In this document: positions 6,921 through 16,950 of the stretch, in pieces
Layout: every line of letters starts with the position of its first letter
Position numbering within the stretch: position 1 is the first letter of the stretch
Assembly (NCBI GenBank): GCA_002377585.1
Contig: DFQC01000051.1
Coordinates: 7,211-71,210, forward strand
Source of the DNA: Anaerolineales bacterium UBA3499
Lineage (GTDB): Bacteria > Chloroflexota > Anaerolineae > Anaerolineales > UBA11657
DNA: 64,000 nt
Direction of reading: 5' to 3'
Notes under the pieces: generated by a model
What the model saw: the letters and a program-made list of their open reading frames with translations, nothing else
Database searches by the model: none
Told to the model about the DNA's origin: nothing
Program-made: the position numbers and the translations under genes

Positions 6921-7349
6921 CTAGGTGACAGATTTGAGTAGTATTACTGGAATTTGTCGCTCTGTCCGTTCTTTGTATCGCTTCAACCAAGGAAATTGTA
7001 ACCCAAGTCGATTGCTCTCACTTCCTTGTGTGAGAATAGCTGACACATCAATAGTCCTGTCGCCGACTTCAATTCTGGCTCCCGGATCGCTTACAATATT
7101 CAAAAACCATGCAGGATGTCTGTCTCTACCACCATTTGAGGCGACTACAGCATAATTGTCTCCATCTTCTACCGCCCCTAAAGGTACAGTATGCAGTCGA
7201 CCCGTTTTTCTGCCAGTAGTAGTTAGTAGAACAACAGGTCTTCCCTGCACTGAACCCAGAAGACGTCCTTTAGAGTAACGATACACAAATATGTGAATCC
7301 TCATCAGTATTCGAATAATTGGCCTACTCAACAGTATTCTAGTCAACAT
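6921..7349 (-). CDS. Deazaflavin (F420H2)-dependent nitroreductase family protein (Ddn-like)
   Basis: LLTTTGRKTG, VVASNGG, HPAWFLNI, RQIPVILL motifs. Confidence 0.88.
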   Translation of the reverse strand: MLTRILLSRPIIRILMRIHIFVYRYSKGRLLGSVQGRPVVLLTTTGRKTGRLHTVPLGAVEDGDNYAVVASNGGRDRHPAWFLNIVSDPGARIEVGDRTIDVSAILTQGSESNRLGLQFPWLKRYKERTERQIPVILLKSVT

Positions 7350-7519
7350 ATAGAAATAACCAAGGGATGATACCTAGCAATGATGAAATTACACTATGTC
7401 TTTGTAGTAACTAGTTGTTCAAGCACCACTTAAAATCCTTTTTCAAAGTTCACCAAGTATACTTCATATTATGATGCTCAATATGGAGCCACACTAGATA
7501 AGTAACAACATAATGATAT

Positions 7520-7548
7520 TTGCACAAATATATATCATATGATAAACT
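7520..7548 (+). promoter_or_regulatory. Sigma70-type promoter of the lys operon leader
   Basis: TTGCAC (7520-7525), 17 bp spacer, TAAACT (7543-7548) preceded by TGa extended -10. Confidence 0.75.
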
Positions 7549-7569
7549 GTTGCCGATCTGAGGATCATT

Positions 7570-7638
7570 ATGAATAATACTGTAACTGTGGTGTACAAGG
7601 CAAAGAAGAGCAAGCCTACCCTAGACGGGGTTGGTTAA
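7570..7638 (+). CDS. Putative Lys-rich leader peptide, 22 aa: MNNTVTVVYKAKKSKPTLDGVG
   Basis: GAGGA SD at 7560-7564, ATG 7570, four Lys codons (all AAG) within six codons, TAA at 7636-7638 overlapping the antiterminator arm. Confidence 0.82.
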   Translation: MNNTVTVVYKAKKSKPTLDGVG

Positions 7639-7700
7639 TTTGCGCTTCGGCACAGAGATGCGGTAATAGCATCCATACACCAGTGTCATTTGCAGATAAC

Positions 7701-7725
7701 AACCCCGTTACTACGGGGTTTTTTT
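7701..7725 (+). terminator. Intrinsic terminator (attenuator 3:4 hairpin) upstream of lysW
   Basis: AACCCCGT-tact-ACGGGGTT 8 bp stem followed by TTTTT. Confidence 0.88.
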
Positions 7726-7778
7726 GATTCTGTTGAATAAGTTTTGTATAAAATATTTTATAAGGAGAGTATTATCTT

Positions 7779-7964
7779 ATGACTGTTGACAATGTAACTG
7801 CAACTAGTGAGTGTCCAGAATGTGCAGGTGAACTCACACTTGACCAAGTTGAACTAGGAGAGATTTTAGTATGTGATGATTGTGGTGCCGAATTAGAAGT
7901 ACTATCACTTGATCCATTATCCATTAGTCTTGCCCCACAAGAAGCAGAAGATTGGGGAGAGTAA
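7779..7964 (+). CDS. lysW: Amino-group carrier protein LysW
   Basis: CPEC...CDDC zinc ribbon, acidic composition, C-terminal EDWGE. Confidence 0.97.
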   Translation: MTVDNVTATSECPECAGELTLDQVELGEILVCDDCGAELEVLSLDPLSISLAPQEAEDWGE

Positions 7965-7993
7965 TGTCTTTTTTGCCGTTTTGAGAGGATATC

Positions 7994-8842
7994 ATGCATA
8001 TTGGAGTAGTATATTCTAGGTTACGTGTAGAAGAAAAGTGGCTATTTAAAGCTCTAGAAAGTCGCGAAGTGTCCTATGAACGACTGTTGGATAGCCAAGC
8101 AATTTTACACCTTGACAATGATAATAATGAATGGTCGCGATTTGATGCAATAATTATAAGAAGCCTGAGTACTAGTCGCGGATTGTCAATTGCACGAGTA
8201 CTAAATTCTTTTGGAATACCCACAATAAACCCGTATTCAGTTTCAGAAATATGTAGTGACAAAGTGGCTACTTCAATTGCTTTAAAAAATGCTAGTGTTC
8301 CTCAACCGAAATCATTGCTCGCTTTTACAGTCAAAGGTGCTATCGAAGCTGGAGAAAGACTTGGATACCCTTATGTACTTAAACCAGTAGTTGGGTCATG
8401 GGGCCGACTAGTAAGTCGTATCAACGACCGAGATGCAGCTGAAGCAATATTTGAACATCGGGATGTTCTAGGTAATTATCAACATCATATATATTATTTG
8501 CAGCAACTTATCCAAAAACCAGGTCGCGATATCCGAGCTTTCGTCATAGGTAATGAAACACCTGTAGCAATTTACCGCGAATCTGAACATTGGATAACTA
8601 ATACTGCATTAGGTGCTACTGCAACAACATGCGAAGTAACAAAAGAACTGCACGACCTATGCCAGAGAGCAGCGACTGCAGTAGGAGGTGGTGTATTAGC
8701 TGTGGATCTTCTAGAAGATCCAGACCGCGGTCTTTTAATCAACGAAATAAATCACACCATGGAGTTTCACTCCACTGTACCACTTACTGGTGTGGATATT
8801 CCTGGTATGATCATTGAACATGTAAGGCAGGTGTCGAAATGA
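7994..8842 (+). CDS. lysX: Alpha-aminoadipate--LysW ligase (ATP-grasp, RimK family)
   Basis: YSRLRVEEK, KPVVGSWGR, DIRAFVIG, WITNTALG, EINHTMEF; follows lysW. Confidence 0.95.
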   Translation: MHIGVVYSRLRVEEKWLFKALESREVSYERLLDSQAILHLDNDNNEWSRFDAIIIRSLSTSRGLSIARVLNSFGIPTINPYSVSEICSDKVATSIALKNASVPQPKSLLAFTVKGAIEAGERLGYPYVLKPVVGSWGRLVSRINDRDAAEAIFEHRDVLGNYQHHIYYLQQLIQKPGRDIRAFVIGNETPVAIYRESEHWITNTALGATATTCEVTKELHDLCQRAATAVGGGVLAVDLLEDPDRGLLINEINHTMEFHSTVPLTGVDIPGMIIEHVRQVSK

Positions 8843-9876
8843 GTTTACGTATATCTATTGTTGGCGGTTCAGGCTATACAGCTGGTGAAATGCTCCGCCT
8901 GATAATCAATCACCCTGAGCTAGAAATCGGACAAGTTGTATCACGAAGTAATGCTGGTCAGCCAATGTGGCGACTACACCCGCATCTTCGAGGACATAAT
9001 CTGCCATCGTTTGTAGATATTGATTCTTTGAAGGAGACAGATATTCTAATCCTTGCCCAACCTCATGGAATTGCGCAACAAAACATAGCTCATTACTCCG
9101 AGATTTCACCTAAAATCATTGATTTGTCTTCTGACTTTAGGCTCAATACACTAACAGTCTATGAAAAATGGTATGGTGATGCACATTTAGCACCAGATTG
9201 GTTGCCACGATTTGTGTATGGACTTCCAGAGATTTACAGAGAAGAGATAAGTAATTCTCAATATGTAAGCGGTGTGGGGTGTAATGCTACAGCGAGTATT
9301 TTAGCGCTCTTTCCTCTTATAAAACATGATCTACTTATTACAGACAGACCCATCATAGCCGAAATCAAAACCGGATCTAGTGAAGGTGGTTCTAAAGCAA
9401 ACCCAGGCAGTCACCATCCAGTTCGTAGTGGATCAGTTAGAAGCTATGCGTCGGTAGGTCACAGGCACACTGCTGAGATACAACAAGTGCTAGGTGTTGA
9501 GGATTTGCACATCAGCTTGACTGCAATAGAAATGGTGCGCGGAGCATTAGCGACAGTTCATGCGTTTGTAAATCCAAACACCAACTTAAAAGATTTGTGG
9601 AAAGCATATAGATCAACATATAAACATGAACCATTTGTACGCATAGTGAGAGACAACCGTGGCAATTATCGCCGTCCTGAACCAAAAATTATTTCTGGCA
9701 GCAACTTTGCTGATGTGGGTTTCGATTTAGATCCTAAAACTGGCAGAATAGTGTCAATATGTGCGATTGATAATCTAATGAAAGGTTCAGTCGGCACGGC
9801 AATGCAATGTGTAAACATTATGTGTGGTTTTGAAGAAACAACCGGATTGGAATTTACGGGTCTACACCCGATCTAG
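8839..9876 (+). CDS. lysY: LysW-gamma-aminoadipyl-phosphate reductase (ArgC family)
   Basis: GGSGYTAGE, IDLSSDFRL, YGLPE, GCNAT, IDNLMKG; operon context. Confidence 0.93.
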   Translation: MSLRISIVGGSGYTAGEMLRLIINHPELEIGQVVSRSNAGQPMWRLHPHLRGHNLPSFVDIDSLKETDILILAQPHGIAQQNIAHYSEISPKIIDLSSDFRLNTLTVYEKWYGDAHLAPDWLPRFVYGLPEIYREEISNSQYVSGVGCNATASILALFPLIKHDLLITDRPIIAEIKTGSSEGGSKANPGSHHPVRSGSVRSYASVGHRHTAEIQQVLGVEDLHISLTAIEMVRGALATVHAFVNPNTNLKDLWKAYRSTYKHEPFVRIVRDNRGNYRRPEPKIISGSNFADVGFDLDPKTGRIVSICAIDNLMKGSVGTAMQCVNIMCGFEETTGLEFTGLHPI

Positions 9877-9883
9877 GAGTTAC

Positions 9884-10696
9884 ATGATGCTTGTTGTCAA
9901 AATCGGTGGGGCTAGCGGAGTTAATATTAATTCTATCGTCACTGACATCGCAAATCAGACAGCATCTGGTGAGAAATTAATTGTCGTACATGGCGGATCT
10001 GAACTAGCTACTGAACTTGGCGAACAACTTGGTCACCCACCACGTTTTGTAACTTCAGCCAGTGGTCACACTAGTAGGTACACAGATAAACGTACTCTCG
10101 AAATCTTTCTCATGGCAACCAGTTTATTAAATAGAAGATTGGTAGGACAACTACAGAATCTAGGGATCAATGCATTTGGACTTAGTGGATTAGATGGTAG
10201 GCTATTGGTTGCAGAACGTAAATCCACTATACGTATTGTAGAAAATGGAAAACGCAAGATTCTGCGAGACGATTACACGGGCCGTATTACAAATGTCAAC
10301 ATAGAGACCGTTAGGGCACTACAATACACAGGACATATCCCTGTTGTGGCACCAGTAGCAATTTCAGACTCTGGTGGAGTAGCACTAAACGTTGATGGGG
10401 ACCGGGCAGCCGCCCGTTTAGCAGGCGCTATAGAAGCGAATAAACTTGTAATACTGAGTAATGTATCAGGTTTATTGAGTGATTTGGCAGACCCTAATAG
10501 CTATATACCAAACATTTCAACTAATGATATCGATGATGCGATTAATAATATAGCTCGTGGACGCATGAAAAGAAAATTAATCGCTGCACGTGAAGCCTTA
10601 GATGCTGGAGTAAAGCAAGTAATTATTGCTAACGGTAAAATAGACCAACCTATTACAAAAGCTTTGAAAGGCGAAGGTACCTTAATCAATGGCTAA
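9884..10696 (+). CDS. lysZ: LysW-aminoadipate kinase (ArgB family); start at 9884 rather than 9824
   Basis: VVKIGG, VVHGG, GLSGLDG, NVDGDRAA, GRMKRK; AGGAG SD directly upstream of 9884. Confidence 0.93.
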   Translation: MMLVVKIGGASGVNINSIVTDIANQTASGEKLIVVHGGSELATELGEQLGHPPRFVTSASGHTSRYTDKRTLEIFLMATSLLNRRLVGQLQNLGINAFGLSGLDGRLLVAERKSTIRIVENGKRKILRDDYTGRITNVNIETVRALQYTGHIPVVAPVAISDSGGVALNVDGDRAAARLAGAIEANKLVILSNVSGLLSDLADPNSYIPNISTNDIDDAINNIARGRMKRKLIAAREALDAGVKQVIIANGKIDQPITKALKGEGTLING

Positions 10697-11864
10697 TTCA
10701 CAGTTCGTAGAAAATAAACATACAAGTGGTGTGTACTACAAACGTGATATAACTATTGTGCGTGGTAAAGGAGCACTCGTTTGGGATCAGCACGGTGAGG
10801 AATATATTGACTGTGTAGCAGGACAAGGGGTAGCTAATTTAGGCCACTGCCACCCCACTGTAGTCGATGCAATACAAAAACAGTCAAAAATCTTAGTTAC
10901 GTGCCCGGAAATATTTTATAACGATCAACGCGCAAAATTACTTGAGCAATTGTCTGAACTAGGACCAGGATCAATGAAACAAACCTTTCTGTCCAATTCT
11001 GGCACTGAAGCCATAGAAGCTGCCATAAAATTTGCTCGTATCAGTACAAAACGAACAGAAATCATAAGCGCACTGAGGAGTTTTCACGGACGTACTATGG
11101 GTGCACTTACATTGACCGGACAGAAAAAATACAGTGCGCCATTCGCACCACTTTTGCCAGGCGTCAAACAGATTCCATACAACAATATCGAGGCCCTAAG
11201 AAATACTGTTACCCAAGATACTGCAGCAGTAATCCTGGAAATAATACAAGGAGAAGGTGGAGTTAGGCCTGCTAATATTAAATTCCTGCAAGAGGCACAA
11301 ACTCTTTGCAACGAAAATGGGACTCTATTCATAGTTGATGAAGTACAAACAGGGCTTGGACGTACAGGAAAAATGCTCGCCTGTAATCATTACAACATAG
11401 AGCCAGACATGCTTTGCCTGGCAAAATCTCTTGGAGGAGGCATACCAATTGGTGCTACCTTGTTAGGATCTAAGGTAAAAAACTTGCACGTAGGAACACA
11501 TGGATCCACATTCGGAGGAAATCCTCTGGCATGCGCAGCATCACTAGCTGTACTGGAAGTGTTGGAACACGAAAATCTGCCTCAACGAGCCGCAGAACAT
11601 GGTAAACGCATCATGAAATTAGTTGAGCAATCTAATTTATCTAATGTAAGAGAGATACGTGGTTTAGGATTAATGATTGGTATAGAACTAAAACATAAAG
11701 TTACTCCTGTATTGAAAGAACTACAACAGAAAGGTATTCTGGCACTACCAGCTGGAAATACTGTCTTACGATTGCTACCTCCATTGATTATTGAACAACA
11801 CCATGTTGACCGAGTTATTGATACAGTTATAGAAGTACTATCAAATATCAATAAATCTAACTGA
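10689..11864 (+). CDS. lysJ: LysW-aminoadipate semialdehyde transaminase (class III, ArgD family)
   Basis: SGTEAIE, FHGRTMG, DEVQTG, AKSLGGG (PLP Lys), HGSTFGGNP. Confidence 0.93.
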   Translation: MANSQFVENKHTSGVYYKRDITIVRGKGALVWDQHGEEYIDCVAGQGVANLGHCHPTVVDAIQKQSKILVTCPEIFYNDQRAKLLEQLSELGPGSMKQTFLSNSGTEAIEAAIKFARISTKRTEIISALRSFHGRTMGALTLTGQKKYSAPFAPLLPGVKQIPYNNIEALRNTVTQDTAAVILEIIQGEGGVRPANIKFLQEAQTLCNENGTLFIVDEVQTGLGRTGKMLACNHYNIEPDMLCLAKSLGGGIPIGATLLGSKVKNLHVGTHGSTFGGNPLACAASLAVLEVLEHENLPQRAAEHGKRIMKLVEQSNLSNVREIRGLGLMIGIELKHKVTPVLKELQQKGILALPAGNTVLRLLPPLIIEQHHVDRVIDTVIEVLSNINKSN

Positions 11865-11890
11865 GTAAAAACCTTTAAAGGAACAATTCG

Positions 11891-13099
11891 ATGTCACTAA
11901 ACGATTTTGCCATTATAGAAAGCACACTAAGAGAGGGTGAACAATTTGTTGGTGCAGACTTCAGTACCGATGATAAGGTGGAAATAGCCTACGCTCTAGC
12001 AAACTTCGGAGTCGAATATATTGAGCTCACATCTCCGTGCGCATCCCCAACATCACTCACGGATTGTAAACTTCTATCAAAACTAGACATCAACTCAAAA
12101 ATACTCACACACATTCGCTGCCATATGGATGATGCAAAAGTCGCCCTTGACACTGGAGTAGATGGTATTGATGTTGTCATAGGTACGAGCTCATATCTGC
12201 GCGACTTCAGCCACGGAAAATCAATCGAAGAGATTATAGACATCGCTCAATCCGTGTTAACTTATATAAGGGCGCAAAATCCGTCTTTAGAGCTGAGGTT
12301 TTCGACAGAAGACTCATTCCGTAGCACAGAAGATGATCTGATAAATGTCTATCAAGCAATCGACCAATTAGAAGTGGTCAATAGATTCGGTATAGCTGAT
12401 ACAGTCGGCGTAGCAACGCCCCACGCGGTATACAACCTCGTGAGCACTCTAAGAAATATTACTGACGCAGATATAGAGTTTCATGGCCACAATGACACTG
12501 GATGTGCAGTTGCCAACAGTCATTCCGCATTGACGGCAGGCGCCACTCATATTGATACAACAGTTTTAGGCATTGGCGAACGTAATGGAATTACTCCATT
12601 AGAAGGTCTAATAGCGCGCCTATACGCAATAGAACCTGACTATATACGTAATAAATACAACCTACATCAACTTCACAAACTAAATCAGATAGTTGCGGAT
12701 AAAGTGGAAATTGAAATACCGTTTAATCATTACATAACGGGATTAACTGCGTTTACCCATAAAGCTGGAATACATGCGAAAGCTATACTAAACAATCCTG
12801 AGACCTATGAGATTCTTAATCCCAATGACTTTGGTCTTACACGCTACATTTCAATCGCACACAAACTTACCGGTTGGAATGCACTACAAGATCGAGCGTC
12901 ACAATTAGGCATAAAAATAAACCCTGACAATTTGAAGGCTGTGACGCACCATGTCAAAAAAATGGCTGATCATAAAAGAATCACGCTAAGTGATGTTGAC
13001 GAACTACTACATCAGTGGGCAGACAACAACTATCACTTTGATAAAACTGAAGGCAGCAGCAAAAAAACAAGCAGTACTAACAGGCAAATTCATAATTAG
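11891..13099 (+). CDS. hcs: Homocitrate synthase
   Basis: [42 protein letters not shown]; no LeuA regulatory domain. Confidence 0.93.
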
Positions 13100-13101
13100 A
13101 T

Positions 13102-14388
13102 ATGTCTATGCAAACATTTGCACAAAAAGCTCTGGCTAAGTCTGCTGGATTACAAAATGTTAGTATTGGCAGTACAGTAGATGCCCGTCCAGATAGAATA
13201 TTGTCTCATGATAATACTGCAGCCATTTCAACGATATTCAACCAGTTTGGTCTAGAAAATGTGTTGCATCCTGAAAAACTTGTAGTAACACTAGATCATG
13301 CTGCACCACCTCCTACACCAATACATGCTCGCAACCATGCTGAGATTCGTAAATTTGTTACTAGGAATAATATAGAACATTTCTTTGAGATAGGACGAGG
13401 CATATGCCATCAGGTTATCAGCGAAGAAGCCTTGATTTTGCCTGGCCAACTTATTATAGGTGCTGATAGCCATACCACTCATTTTGGTTGGCTTGGAGCA
13501 TTTGGCGCGGGAGTAGGTCGAACAGAGATCGCAGCTCTTTGGGCAACTGGAGAACTTTGGCTGCGTGTACCAAATAGCATATCAGTGAAACTAACAGGTC
13601 AACTCAAATCAGGTGTAACAACTAAGGACCTATGCTTGCATCTTATAGGACAAGTAAGTTCTGATGGTGGACTATATGCTTCTATTGAATTTTCCGGAGA
13701 ATCAATATCACAACTCAGTATAGACAGTCGAACTGTAATCCCTAATATGATGGCTGAACTGGGAGCAAAAAATGCATATTTGCCACCTGACAAACGGGTT
13801 TTTGAATGGCTAGCAAACAAACTAAAACATAGATTGAGCGTCGAAGACATAAGGAAATTAGCTATCTATCCTGACAAGGGAGCAACTTACTTAGAAGTGA
13901 TCGAGATTGACCTTGGAAAATTGGAGCCACAAGTTGCAGCCCCTCATCAGGTTGACAATGTGCAACCAATTTCAGTAGTAGCTGGAAAACAAGTTGATCA
14001 GGTATTCATAGGCACTTGCACTAACGGTAGACTAGAGGATATTGCAATTGCTGCTGAAATACTAAAGGGCGAAAAGGTTGCAACGGGCACTCGGATGATC
14101 ATTATCCCTGCATCGAGCCAAATTTTACATTCTGCCGTCAATTTAGGTTATATATCGATCTTGCTTGAGGCCGGTGCTACACTGGGTACTCCAGGCTGTG
14201 GACCGTGCATGGGCAACCATCTAGGCGTACCTGCTGCTGGTGAAACATGTCTATCTACAGGTAATCGTAATTTCCGTGGCCGCATGGGAGAACCAGATGC
14301 CGAAATCTACCTGGCTAGTCCTGCAGTTGCTGCAGCCACTGCATTAACAGGTTCAATCACTGACCCTAGAAGCTTGGAGGTGTCATGA
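13102..14388 (+). CDS. lysT: Homoaconitase large subunit (LeuC family)
   Basis: [49 protein letters not shown]; operon context. Confidence 0.9.
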
Positions 14389-14900
14389 AATTTTCTGGTC
14401 AAATATGGAAATATGGTGATGATATTAACACTGACGTTATTTTTCCAGGCAAGTACACGTATACACTACGTGATCCCAAAGAAATGGGTAAGCATGCACT
14501 AGAAGATCTTGACCCAGAATTTGCTAGCAATGTACAGAATGGGGACATAATTTTTGCTGGCAAAAATTTTGGAAATGGAAGCTCTCGTGAACAAGCCGTA
14601 GTCTGTCTAAAAGAAGCTGGGGTATCGGCAGTAGTTGCGATGAGTTTTGCGCGAATATGGTACCGCAATGCAATCAACAACGGTCTACCAGCAATTATAT
14701 GTCCTAAGGCAGTAATAGAAGCAGTGCACGGTAAGCACGCAACAGTTGACATAGAGGGTCGAGCCATCAACATACAAGATAAGACTTACAGTTTTCCTCC
14801 ATTTTCAGAGACAGCCACTGAAATACTTAAGTACGGCGGCTTGATTTTATACATACAAAAGAAACTTGCAGATATTGGAAACTCAAAGCCAGCATCATGA
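14385..14900 (+). CDS. lysU: Homoaconitase small subunit (LeuD family)
   Basis: [36 protein letters not shown]. Confidence 0.9.
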
Positions 14901-15904
14901 CTACTAATACAATATGCCTATTGCCTGGCGATGGAATAGGATTAGAGGTAATTCCAATAGCCACCGAAATACTTGAAGTATTAGATGTGGATCTAACAAC
15001 AGAAAGTCACCCCATCGGATGGGAATGTTTTAATGAAACCGGTACAGCACTACCTAAAAGCACTCTGGATGCGGTAATCCATTCCGGCATAGGTCTTTTT
15101 GGAGCAACAAGCTCACCCACTGGTGGAGCTCCTGGATATAGTAGTCCAATTATTGATTTACGTCAGCAATTAAACCTGTACGCCAATGTACGTCCCGCAA
15201 AATCCCTCCCCGTACCATCATCTCGTCAAAACATAGATTTACTCATTATAAGAGAAAATACTGAAGGTCTTTATATTCGCTCAGAACATTGGCAAGATCA
15301 AGACACGGTGATAGCTGAAAGAAGAATTACACGTACAGGAAGTGAACGTGTGGCTCGAACAGCCGCAAAATATGCACTGCAACGTGAAGGTTTACTTACC
15401 ATAGCACATAAATCCAACGTTCTCTCTTTGTCTGATGGTCTTTTCCTAGACGTCGTAAGAGATACGGCGAAACGTTATGCACCTGACATAGAAATAAGGG
15501 AACAGTTGGTTGATTCGCTAGCTCATGACCTCATTACTCAACCGGAAAACTATGATGTAATTGTAACTCCAAACATGTATGGAGATATTATTTCTGACCT
15601 CACCAGTGCACTTGTAGGAGGACTAGGAGTGGCACCATCTGCTAACATGGGTGATAACTGCGCAATTTACGAGCCAGTTCATGGATCCGCACCAGATATA
15701 GCAGGTAAGAATTTAGCAAACCCAACAGCTACTATACTGAGCCTAGCTATGATGTTAGAAGACTTAGGTTATGACAATGCTTCAAATGAACTCAAACTTG
15801 AACTTTATAACACCTTGGAAGAAGGAATGTATACTCCCGATTTGGGAGGAAGTGCAACTACAGAGACAATGCTCATAAGCATCTTGGAGAAGTTAACCAA
15901 GTGA
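14897..15904 (+). CDS. hicd: Homoisocitrate dehydrogenase
   Basis: GDGIGLEV, IRENTEGLY, HKSNVL, PNMYGDIISD, EPVHGSAPDIAG; operon context. Confidence 0.88.
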   Translation: MTTNTICLLPGDGIGLEVIPIATEILEVLDVDLTTESHPIGWECFNETGTALPKSTLDAVIHSGIGLFGATSSPTGGAPGYSSPIIDLRQQLNLYANVRPAKSLPVPSSRQNIDLLIIRENTEGLYIRSEHWQDQDTVIAERRITRTGSERVARTAAKYALQREGLLTIAHKSNVLSLSDGLFLDVVRDTAKRYAPDIEIREQLVDSLAHDLITQPENYDVIVTPNMYGDIISDLTSALVGGLGVAPSANMGDNCAIYEPVHGSAPDIAGKNLANPTATILSLAMMLEDLGYDNASNELKLELYNTLEEGMYTPDLGGSATTETMLISILEKLTK

Positions 15905-16950
15905 ATTCAAAAGAACTACTTGTTGGATTACTAAAACATTACAGCCCTACTGAATCTGAGACTTCTGCCGTCAACTATCTAACAAATTGGATGAATGATG
16001 CGGGTTTCGAAACTCAGATTGACCATTCAGGTAACGCTATAGGAAAAATAGGTACTGGTCCTATATCTATTATGCTATTAGGTCATATTGATACTGTGCA
16101 AGGCGAAATACCAGTTAGACAGGAAGGAGACTTAATCTATGGTCGCGGAGCAGTAGATGCTAAAGGACCACTGGCTGCTTTTGCATCAGCTGCAAGTTTA
16201 GGGGCAATACCTGGGGCAACAATTACAGTGATTGGTGCTGTAGGAGAAGAAGGCGATTCTAGAGGCGCATCATATTTGCTCAACAATTGCGATAGACCTG
16301 ACTTTTTATTAATTGGCGAACCCAGTCGATGGAATCGAATAACTCTTGGATATAAAGGATCAATAAGCTATACACTTTCAGTAGATATACCAATCACACA
16401 TCCTGCGAGCAATACAGATAATGCATGCGAGATGCTAATCTCTAGTTGGAAATCATTACTGCAGTTTACCAGAGCTTATAACACCCAATATGAAAGAGTT
16501 TTTGATCAAGTTACTCCAACAATTCGGTCAATAAATTCGACCAGTGATGGCATCAGAGATCATGCCCAAATGCACATTACTTTCCGACTACCTGAAGGTT
16601 TAACAATCAATGAAATAAAAGACAAACTGCAAACATATGTTACTGCTCCAGCTAAATTAAACTTAACGCCAGGAGCAGTAGAGGCTTATCGAGCTTCTAA
16701 GAATACTAAGTTAGTCCGAGCAGCACTTGCAGCGATACGTTCTAAGGATGGTACACCAAGTTTTGTAGTTAAAACTGGGACATCTGATATGAATATAGTA
16801 GCCCCCAAATGGCAATGTCCGAGCATAGCTTATGGACCCGGGGACTCAAATCTTGATCATACTCCAAACGAACATATCTCTCAGTTAGAATATCAACGCA
16901 GTATTGCGGTATTACGAACCCTCATGGAAAACATCAGTAATGAACGGTAG
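15901..16950 (+). CDS. lysK: LysW-lysine hydrolase (M20/ArgE family)
   Basis: LLGHIDTV, GRGAVDAKG, VGEEG, IGEPS, KTGTSDMN, YGPGDSNLDHTPNE; GTG start. Confidence 0.93.
   Translation: MNSKELLVGLLKHYSPTESETSAVNYLTNWMNDAGFETQIDHSGNAIGKIGTGPISIMLLGHIDTVQGEIPVRQEGDLIYGRGAVDAKGPLAAFASAASLGAIPGATITVIGAVGEEGDSRGASYLLNNCDRPDFLLIGEPSRWNRITLGYKGSISYTLSVDIPITHPASNTDNACEMLISSWKSLLQFTRAYNTQYERVFDQVTPTIRSINSTSDGIRDHAQMHITFRLPEGLTINEIKDKLQTYVTAPAKLNLTPGAVEAYRASKNTKLVRAALAAIRSKDGTPSFVVKTGTSDMNIVAPKWQCPSIAYGPGDSNLDHTPNEHISQLEYQRSIAVLRTLMENISNER

Follow-up and report, generated by a model that had tools for sequence, protein, structure and literature searches.

The LysW operon and its leader region

The window analysed here is a 64,000-nucleotide (nt) stretch of contig DFQC01000051.1 from Anaerolineales bacterium UBA3499, a marine metagenome-assembled genome of 2.13 Mb that is 94% complete, has a GC content of 41% and has UBA3001 and UBA1136 as its closest named relatives. 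The window carries a ten-gene operon for lysine synthesis that begins with lysW, and a preliminary description of the sequence had placed a lysine-sensing leader-peptide attenuator immediately upstream of it. Letter-by-letter inspection of positions 7300-8100 around this leader, together with annotation of the operon, yielded the features listed here.

7520-7525 and 7543-7548, + strand: promoter, with -35 box TTGCAC (7520-7525), a 17-nt spacer with terminal TG (extended -10) and -10 box TAAACT (7543-7548); from sequence and conservation
7560-7564, + strand: Shine-Dalgarno sequence GAGGA, 5 nt 5' of the leader ATG
7570-7638, + strand: leader open reading frame (ORF) of 22 codons, MNNTVTVVYKAKKSKPTLDGVG, with ATG at 7570 and stop codon TAA at 7636-7638
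7597-7599, 7603-7605, 7606-7608 and 7612-7614, + strand: proposed regulatory Lys codons, four of four AAG; from the leader translation
7600-7622, + strand: segment 1, the 5' strand of the 1:2 protector (anti-antiterminator) hairpin; from the minimum-free-energy fold
7625-7651, + strand: segment 2, the alternative partner of segment 1 or segment 3, holding the last leader codons and the stop
7691-7708 (7691-7697 plus 7700-7708), + strand: segment 3, the 3' strand of the antiterminator; from folds and covariation
7701-7725, + strand: intrinsic terminator 3:4, with an 8-base-pair (bp) stem (7701-7708/7713-7720), a UACU loop and a U-tract at 7719-7725
7779-16950, + strand: ten-gene operon lysW-lysX-lysY-lysZ-lysJ-hcs-hacA-hacB-hicdh-lysK; from NCBIfam matches

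The products of the ten operon ORFs match LysW, LysX, ArgC/LysY, LysZ, ArgD/LysJ, homocitrate synthase, the large and small subunits of homoaconitase, homoisocitrate dehydrogenase and LysK. Eight of the ten exceed the curated NCBIfam cut-off of the LysW-pathway family or the corresponding enzyme family; homoisocitrate dehydrogenase scores 372.8 bits against a cut-off of 409.8, and the LysJ-specific model is likewise below its cut-off. From these matches, the operon is predicted to encode the complete alpha-aminoadipate/LysW lysine pathway in a single unit. No lysA gene was found in the whole genome, and the lysW operon is thus its only recognisable lysine route. lysW starts at 7779, about 53-55 nt beyond the end of the terminator U-tract.

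The gene 5' of the leader (6921-7349) encodes an F420H2-dependent quinone reductase family protein and lies on the opposite strand, so the terminator at 7701-7720 ends no upstream gene. The divergent intergenic region also contains a genus-conserved sequence, ACCAAGTATACTTCATATTA, at 7452-7471, about 50 nt 5' of the leader promoter, which may serve as an operator or as the promoter of the quinone reductase gene on the minus strand.

Transcription is predicted to start at about 7555. The leader promoter was missed by a generic promoter scan; the arrangement of TTGCAC, a 17-nt spacer ending in TG and TAAACT, TACACT or TAGACT is kept in all eight readable members of family f1, in which the distance from the -10 box to the leader ATG is 19-22 nt and mostly 21. 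Most relatives have a Shine-Dalgarno sequence of the GAGG/GGAG type at an equal distance from the ATG. In two genomes (L010 and L013), the -10 box ends just 6-8 nt 5' of the leader ATG, an arrangement that suggests translation of these leader peptides from leaderless mRNA.

The preliminary description had proposed this promoter, this Shine-Dalgarno sequence and a 22-amino-acid (aa) peptide containing K-A-K-K-S-K, and all of them lie where it had put them. The K-A-K-K-S-K run amounts to four Lys in six codons, in a genome in which 4.0% of codons specify Lys and 33% of these are AAG, the less used of the two; genes for tRNA-Lys(CUU) and tRNA-Lys(UUU) are both present. Read in the +1 frame, positions 7597-7614 give R-Q-R-R-A-S.

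Mutually exclusive helices and a predicted ribosome-sensitive switch

The leader RNA can form three helices, two pairs of which share a strand. The terminator predicted at 7701-7720, AACCCCGT-tact-ACGGGGTT followed by seven T residues, was recovered both by a consensus scan and by folding, with a hairpin energy of -13 kcal/mol. Its 5' arm, 7701-7708, also serves as part of segment 3. The protector helix, which had been described as 7613-7621 paired with 7628-7636, contains eight standard pairs (-10.1 kcal/mol) within an actual hairpin that is longer: in the minimum-free-energy form, 7600-7622 pairs imperfectly with 7627-7651 (-20 kcal/mol locally), and the RNAalifold consensus for this helix is CAA.CCC/GGG.UUG. 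The antiterminator was likewise borne out and can be extended, such that pairing of ACGGGGUUG (7625-7633) with CAACCCCGU (7700-7708) is joined by pairing of AUUUGCG (7638-7644) with UGCAGAU (7691-7697), giving 9 + 7 bp. The antiterminator encloses an inner loop of about 50 nt (7645-7690), which contains conserved small hairpins; of the whole alignment, this loop region is the least conserved. Folding of the free leader RNA (7555-7727) gives -54.8 kcal/mol, with the 1:2 hairpin and the terminator both formed.

The position of the ORF relative to these helices is the one expected of an attenuator. Segment 1 shares nucleotides with Lys codons 12, 13 and 15 as well as with those for Pro-Thr-Leu, and the stop codon falls inside segment 2, an overlap that had been pointed out at the outset. 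With the Lys codons inside segment 1 and the stop inside segment 2, the geometry is right for a ribosome-mediated switch.

We modelled the ribosome as a masked footprint of 28 nt and refolded the RNA with each of the four Lys codons or the stop codon in the A site. The unmasked RNA forms all eight terminator pairs. Placing K10, K12 or K13 in the A site abolishes the terminator in the full-length fold (zero of eight pairs) and puts all 8 nt of its 5' arm into the antiterminator, whereas with the stop codon in the A site the footprint (7621-7648) covers segment 2 and the terminator regains eight of eight pairs. With K15 in the A site, the full-length fold is still that of the terminator, and the antiterminator appears only in the fold lacking segment 4. 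In folds that end at 7712 and so lack segment 4, the antiterminator forms for all four Lys positions and not for the stop position. These folds agree, in silico, with the earlier proposal that a ribosome stalled at Lys frees segment 2 and full translation masks it, and the constrained folding that had been suggested as a check gave the predicted outcome on both sides: antiterminator at K10, K12 and K13, terminator for the free RNA or at the stop.

The same switch logic was regained in 1 of 500 dinucleotide-preserving shuffles of 7615-7700 in which the Lys codons and the terminator were held fixed. A co-transcriptional version of the fold test was clean in the window and its genus and mixed in distant members and in the Lys/Arg families described below. 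In GC-rich relatives, the full-length equilibrium test is uninformative because very stable terminators win whatever the mask.

Rarity and conservation of the leader

Runs of at least four Lys in six codons occur in 35 of 33,720 short ATG-initiated ORFs genome-wide (0.1%). A scan of the 2.1-Mb genome for intergenic short ORFs with at least three Lys in six codons, a Shine-Dalgarno sequence and a downstream terminator returned the lysW leader and one artefact, in which the "Lys run" was a terminator A-tract.

LysW is present in 33 of 41 related genomes. Of 401 sampled genomes of the order, 13 contain a single match each to a covariance model built from 11 leader sequences (R1); these genomes are distributed over three Anaerolineales families, and by coordinates the match in each case lies directly upstream of lysW. 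The carriers comprise members of the window's own genus (L001-L006), the rest of its family (L007-L010) and two further families (L011, L013 and L014). Four weak additional matches within the order (E values of 0.002-0.007) were rejected as ordinary gene-end terminators that lack leaders. Across 400 genomes of the phylum R1 matched nothing beyond the window's own genome, and among 80 named lysW loci from many phyla it matched only the three closest Anaerolineales genomes. This restricted distribution indicates that the leader constitutes a narrow sequence family.

Homologous leaders include peptides ending in KAKKSKPTLDGVG or KIKKFKPTLNRVG before the stop codon and others containing KAKKVKKNKPTRAGLAD, KQSKKTNS, KPKESKKTNP or RKSKKATT. 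In 12 of the 12 homologous leaders read, the Lys run is in frame with the ATG; the N-terminus, the length (22-36 aa) and the frame after the Lys run differ, and a 1-nt insertion or deletion between ACCC and GGGG displaces the leader stop in relatives. The constancy of the ATG and the Lys run, set against the variability of the rest of the peptide, points to a regulatory ORF and not a functional peptide. The preliminary description had made its reading depend on conservation of the leader ORF and the pairing in relatives, and the ORF, Lys run, promoter and three helices are all kept in the 13 genomes and three families.

The covariation analysis of regions upstream of lysW, likewise proposed in advance, gave a divided answer, with compensatory changes in the antiterminator and the terminator and none in the 1:2 helix.

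Antiterminator: 17 pairs; 86% of cells paired (37-50% when slid); 5 pairs changed on both sides
Terminator: 8 pairs; 95% of cells paired (31-64% when slid); 3 pairs changed on both sides
1:2 consensus helix: 6 pairs; 92% of cells paired (24-79% when slid); 0 pairs changed on both sides

The terminator covariation score was matched in none of 500 shuffles. L010 carries a concerted substitution at alignment column 116 and at both of its partners: U to C in GGGGU of segment 2, A to G in AACCCC of segment 3 and U to C in GGGGUU of segment 4. This triple change preserves both mutually exclusive helices. Coming from a small and partly redundant sample, the covariation is supportive, not decisive.

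Leader codons and the products of the LysW pathway

In other Anaerolineales families, lysW is preceded by non-homologous leaders with mixed Lys/Arg codons, each followed by a terminator. Their forms include ...LKRARR[FLS]PKP..AFG..., ...LPKREFRLPKRP... and ...LKRSPRRRP..., and one leader is Arg-only (LRIRSPRI). These leaders share with that of the window their position before lysW and their layout, consisting of a run of basic codons, a Lys-Pro step, a segment 2 and a terminator. They differ in their codons (K-R-A-R-R-x-P-K-P or similar) and are not detected by R1. Crude folds of the Lys/Arg leaders are ambiguous, and their switch logic is less clear than in the window.

Leader codon content follows the arginine genes of the genome. 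Of the 13 genomes with Lys-only leaders, 11 have argJ and the other two are 88-89% complete; none of the six genomes with Lys/Arg or Arg leaders (87-98% complete) has the gene. All six of the latter have one full-length argC/lysY gene, adjoining lysW, where most Lys-only genomes have two. In the two Lys/Arg genomes checked for it, argH lies directly 5' of the leader. This comparison spans about seven family-level lineages and does not represent many independent events. The window's genome falls on the Lys-only side and has a separate classical arginine cluster on genome contig C51 (argC, an argB-argD fusion, a GNAT gene, argG and argJ), so its LysW operon need not serve arginine. The fusion within this cluster is a single 658-aa ORF (C51:9475-11451). 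Its residues 271-649 match acetylornithine aminotransferase (ArgD), and its N-terminal 250 aa are acetylglutamate kinase-like by cluster position and by eye, with no kinase family among the matches shown.

It is difficult to account for such agreement between leader codons and probable pathway products if the codons do not act as the sensor. We tentatively propose, with confidence that stops somewhat short of even, that the codons of lysW leaders are an evolvable label of LysW-pathway products, that the wider class is a multivalent Lys+Arg attenuator of which the window element is the Lys-only state, and, as a corollary, that the exclusive use of AAG makes this element a sensor of one isoacceptor. 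We know of no description in bacteria of arginine-codon leader attenuation of a biosynthetic operon.

Among the Lys/Arg leaders, a recurrent type is ...GLKRARR[F/L/S]PKP..AFG... with a terminator GGCCTCTC...GAGAGGCC, about 90-220 nt 5' of lysW (L019, L062, L082, L086, L088, L103, L108, L114 and L122). In L019, the one genome of this type that was checked, the leader lies between argH and lysW and the genome is without argJ. The GLKRARR-type leader is possibly a multivalent Lys+Arg attenuator.

Leader and operon sequences in marine metatranscriptomes

Marine metatranscriptome assemblies hold sequence nearly identical to the leader, from close relatives at 95-99% identity. Three contigs, corresponding to 7626-7860 (X25), 7611-7760 (X26) and 7700-8056 (X13), cross the terminator towards or into lysW, and one read-length contig (X24, 7572-7722) ends inside the U-tract. 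Among the assemblies searched, no contig lay upstream of 7572. The contigs, though anecdotal, fit transcription from about 7555 that in some cases ends at the terminator and in others continues past it. lysW, lysX and lysY (window 7700-9091) are represented in marine metatranscriptome assemblies at an identity of at least 99%, and the operon is thus apparently expressed in situ.

Proposed mechanism and alternative explanations

We consider it very probable that the element attenuates transcription by a ribosome-mediated, leader-peptide mechanism and in this way couples the lysW operon to the supply of charged tRNA-Lys. Each component of a trp-type attenuator is supported in silico, namely an ORF with a Shine-Dalgarno sequence, a cluster of codons for the end product, a terminator, a mutually exclusive antiterminator and a 1:2 hairpin predicted to be sensitive to the ribosome. 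In the proposed sequence of events, transcription would begin at about 7555 and a ribosome would load on the 22-codon leader. With Lys-tRNA plentiful, the ribosome would reach the TAA at 7636-7638 and cover segment 2 (7625-7651), leaving segment 3 free to pair with segment 4; the terminator at 7701-7720 would form and polymerase would stop in the U-tract before lysW. With Lys-tRNA scarce, the ribosome would stall on the AAG codons (7597-7614) and cover segment 1 but not segment 2, which would pair with segment 3 once that is made, so that no terminator would form and the ten lysine-synthesis genes would be transcribed. Without translation the 1:2 hairpin would form, and termination would be the default.

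Several points weigh against this reading. We infer both that ribosome stalling decides termination and that lysine is the signal, and we do so for an uncultured organism represented by a metagenome-assembled genome. On the RNA side there are assembled contigs from close relatives, which lack strand information and may include DNA carry-over, and just one of them ends at the terminator. The leaders of L007-L010 and L014 stop 25-45 nt further downstream, and masking of segment 2 at the stop codon fails in their equilibrium folds; the proposed mechanism would there need a kinetic version, with 1:2 re-forming behind the ribosome. The alignment comprises just 11 distinct sequences, several of them close. 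The antiterminator covariation score was reached in 37 of 500 shuffles, which makes it a modest control, and the 1:2 helix is conserved without compensatory change, such that covariation neither supports nor contradicts it.

Three other explanations of the locus deserve consideration. The region 7555-7725 might be an independent small gene, encoding a small RNA (sRNA), a 22-aa protein or both, with lysW transcribed from a separate promoter further downstream. It does have its own promoter and terminator, one RNA contig covers just 7572-7722, and trpL and similar attenuated leaders are known to double as sRNAs or small peptides (PMC12612679). We nevertheless regard an independent gene as improbable: a promoter scan of 7726-7778 gave none on the plus strand, three RNA contigs run over the terminator into lysW, and the unit is always found directly upstream of that gene. 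The peptide outside the Lys run is moreover unconserved, with a C-terminal frame that shifts between relatives, and the antiterminator, which would have no role in such a gene, is conserved and covaries.

A real switch might instead be set by a direct ligand, through an unknown type of riboswitch, or by an RNA-binding protein, the Lys-rich ORF being incidental. The conserved small hairpins within the antiterminator loop (7645-7690) could be read in this way, and lysine riboswitches are the usual lysine sensor of bacteria. However, neither the L-box nor any other Rfam family matches above threshold, the loop in question is the least conserved part of the alignment, and the Lys run, ATG and Shine-Dalgarno sequence are in frame in every member. 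A ligand or protein would also leave unexplained why codon identity tracks the products, Lys or Lys plus Arg, and we give this explanation little credence. Chance co-occurrence, in which a fortuitous short ORF in an AT-rich spacer lies beside a terminator that insulates lysW, seems to us scarcely credible. AAG/AAA-rich strings are not rare at 41% GC and short ORFs are abundant, but a Lys run of this kind occurs in 0.1% of short ORFs, the unit of Lys-rich ORF, Shine-Dalgarno sequence and terminator is the sole one in 2.1 Mb, and the switch arose in 1 of 500 shuffles. The element is also conserved across three families, and the upstream gene is divergent, hence there is no plus-strand transcription to insulate against.

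Comparison with known systems

In bacteria, lysine regulation is most often attributed to the L-box riboswitch or protein regulators, and to our knowledge Thermus is the only case in which experiments have demonstrated a lysine leader-peptide attenuator. The window element would add an unrelated sequence family with Thermus-like logic, standing before a whole LysW operon in marine Anaerolineales, which are uncultured and of whose gene regulation almost nothing is therefore known. For annotators, it provides an element missing from Rfam, with coordinates for a promoter, a leader ORF and three helices. The contrast between Lys-only and Lys/Arg leaders offers a natural comparison for how attenuators acquire or change amino-acid specificity. 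Practical value is modest and lies in operon and regulon annotation and in a compact lysine-responsive switch for synthetic biology.

The mechanism is the textbook one, and the leader is a distinct, narrow sequence family that is uncatalogued in Rfam. A scan of 7300-7900 against Rfam 15 at permissive E values gave nothing at threshold; Leu_leader and Trp_leader scored 18 and 17 bits against gathering thresholds of 41-50, scores that are due to the terminator. A literature search found no relevant paper on a lysW or Chloroflexi lysine leader, nor was an Rfam family of this kind found for Chloroflexota.

The proteobacterial trp, his, leu, thr, ilv and pheA leaders (Rfam RF00513, RF00512 and others) share the proposed mechanism, with four segments and default termination without translation, and differ from the window element in amino acid, phylum and sequence. 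We know of no proteobacterial lysine operon that has leader-peptide attenuation. The L-box (RF00168) likewise controls genes of lysine biosynthesis and transport through premature termination in response to lysine, but it senses free lysine directly via an aptamer of about 180 nt. No L-box was found in the whole genome, nor in 7300-7900 at E values of up to 10.

The closest parallel is the leader of the alpha-aminoadipate lysine cluster of Thermus thermophilus, an attenuator that Tsubouchi and co-workers reportedly described in 2005 in the Journal of Biological Chemistry. There, too, a short ORF with Lys codons and an antiterminator/terminator precede alpha-aminoadipate lysine genes. In Thermus-like genomes (L132-L141), we observe a 14-aa ORF, MLAREKKLGRRGVG, and a terminator, CCGGCCCGAGTTCGGGCCGG followed by a T-run, about 110 to 25 nt 5' of hcs. 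This leader ends in G-V-G-stop within a G-rich strand that, judged by eye, is able to base-pair with the terminator's 5' arm, like the DGVG-stop of the window peptide. Gene order differs, in that lysW is first and hcs sixth in the window whereas the Thermus leader precedes hcs, which there heads the major lys cluster. The leaders themselves also differ: that of the window has 22 codons, four AAG in six codons and a long 1:2 hairpin containing the Lys codons, and that of Thermus has 14 codons and two tandem AAA. Searched with filters off against 11 Thermus-like hcs loci, R1 gave a best E value of 1.2, on unrelated terminators. With the Thermus element thus missed by R1, homology cannot be demonstrated, and the likeness is one of working only.

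At the hcs loci of Deinococcus (L128-L130 and L142-L159) no leader was seen. Many of these loci have in common a palindrome of the type TTATCAATTGATA, located 5' of a TTGACAT promoter, an arrangement that points to control by a protein regulator. Candidate leaders before lysW also occur outside Chloroflexota: in two Phycisphaerae genomes (L071 and L076), short ORFs encoding K-A-A-K-A-K-D or K-Y-A-K-A-K-D-A-K lie with strong terminators about 120-220 nt 5' of lysW, and from their sequence these appear to be Lys leaders.

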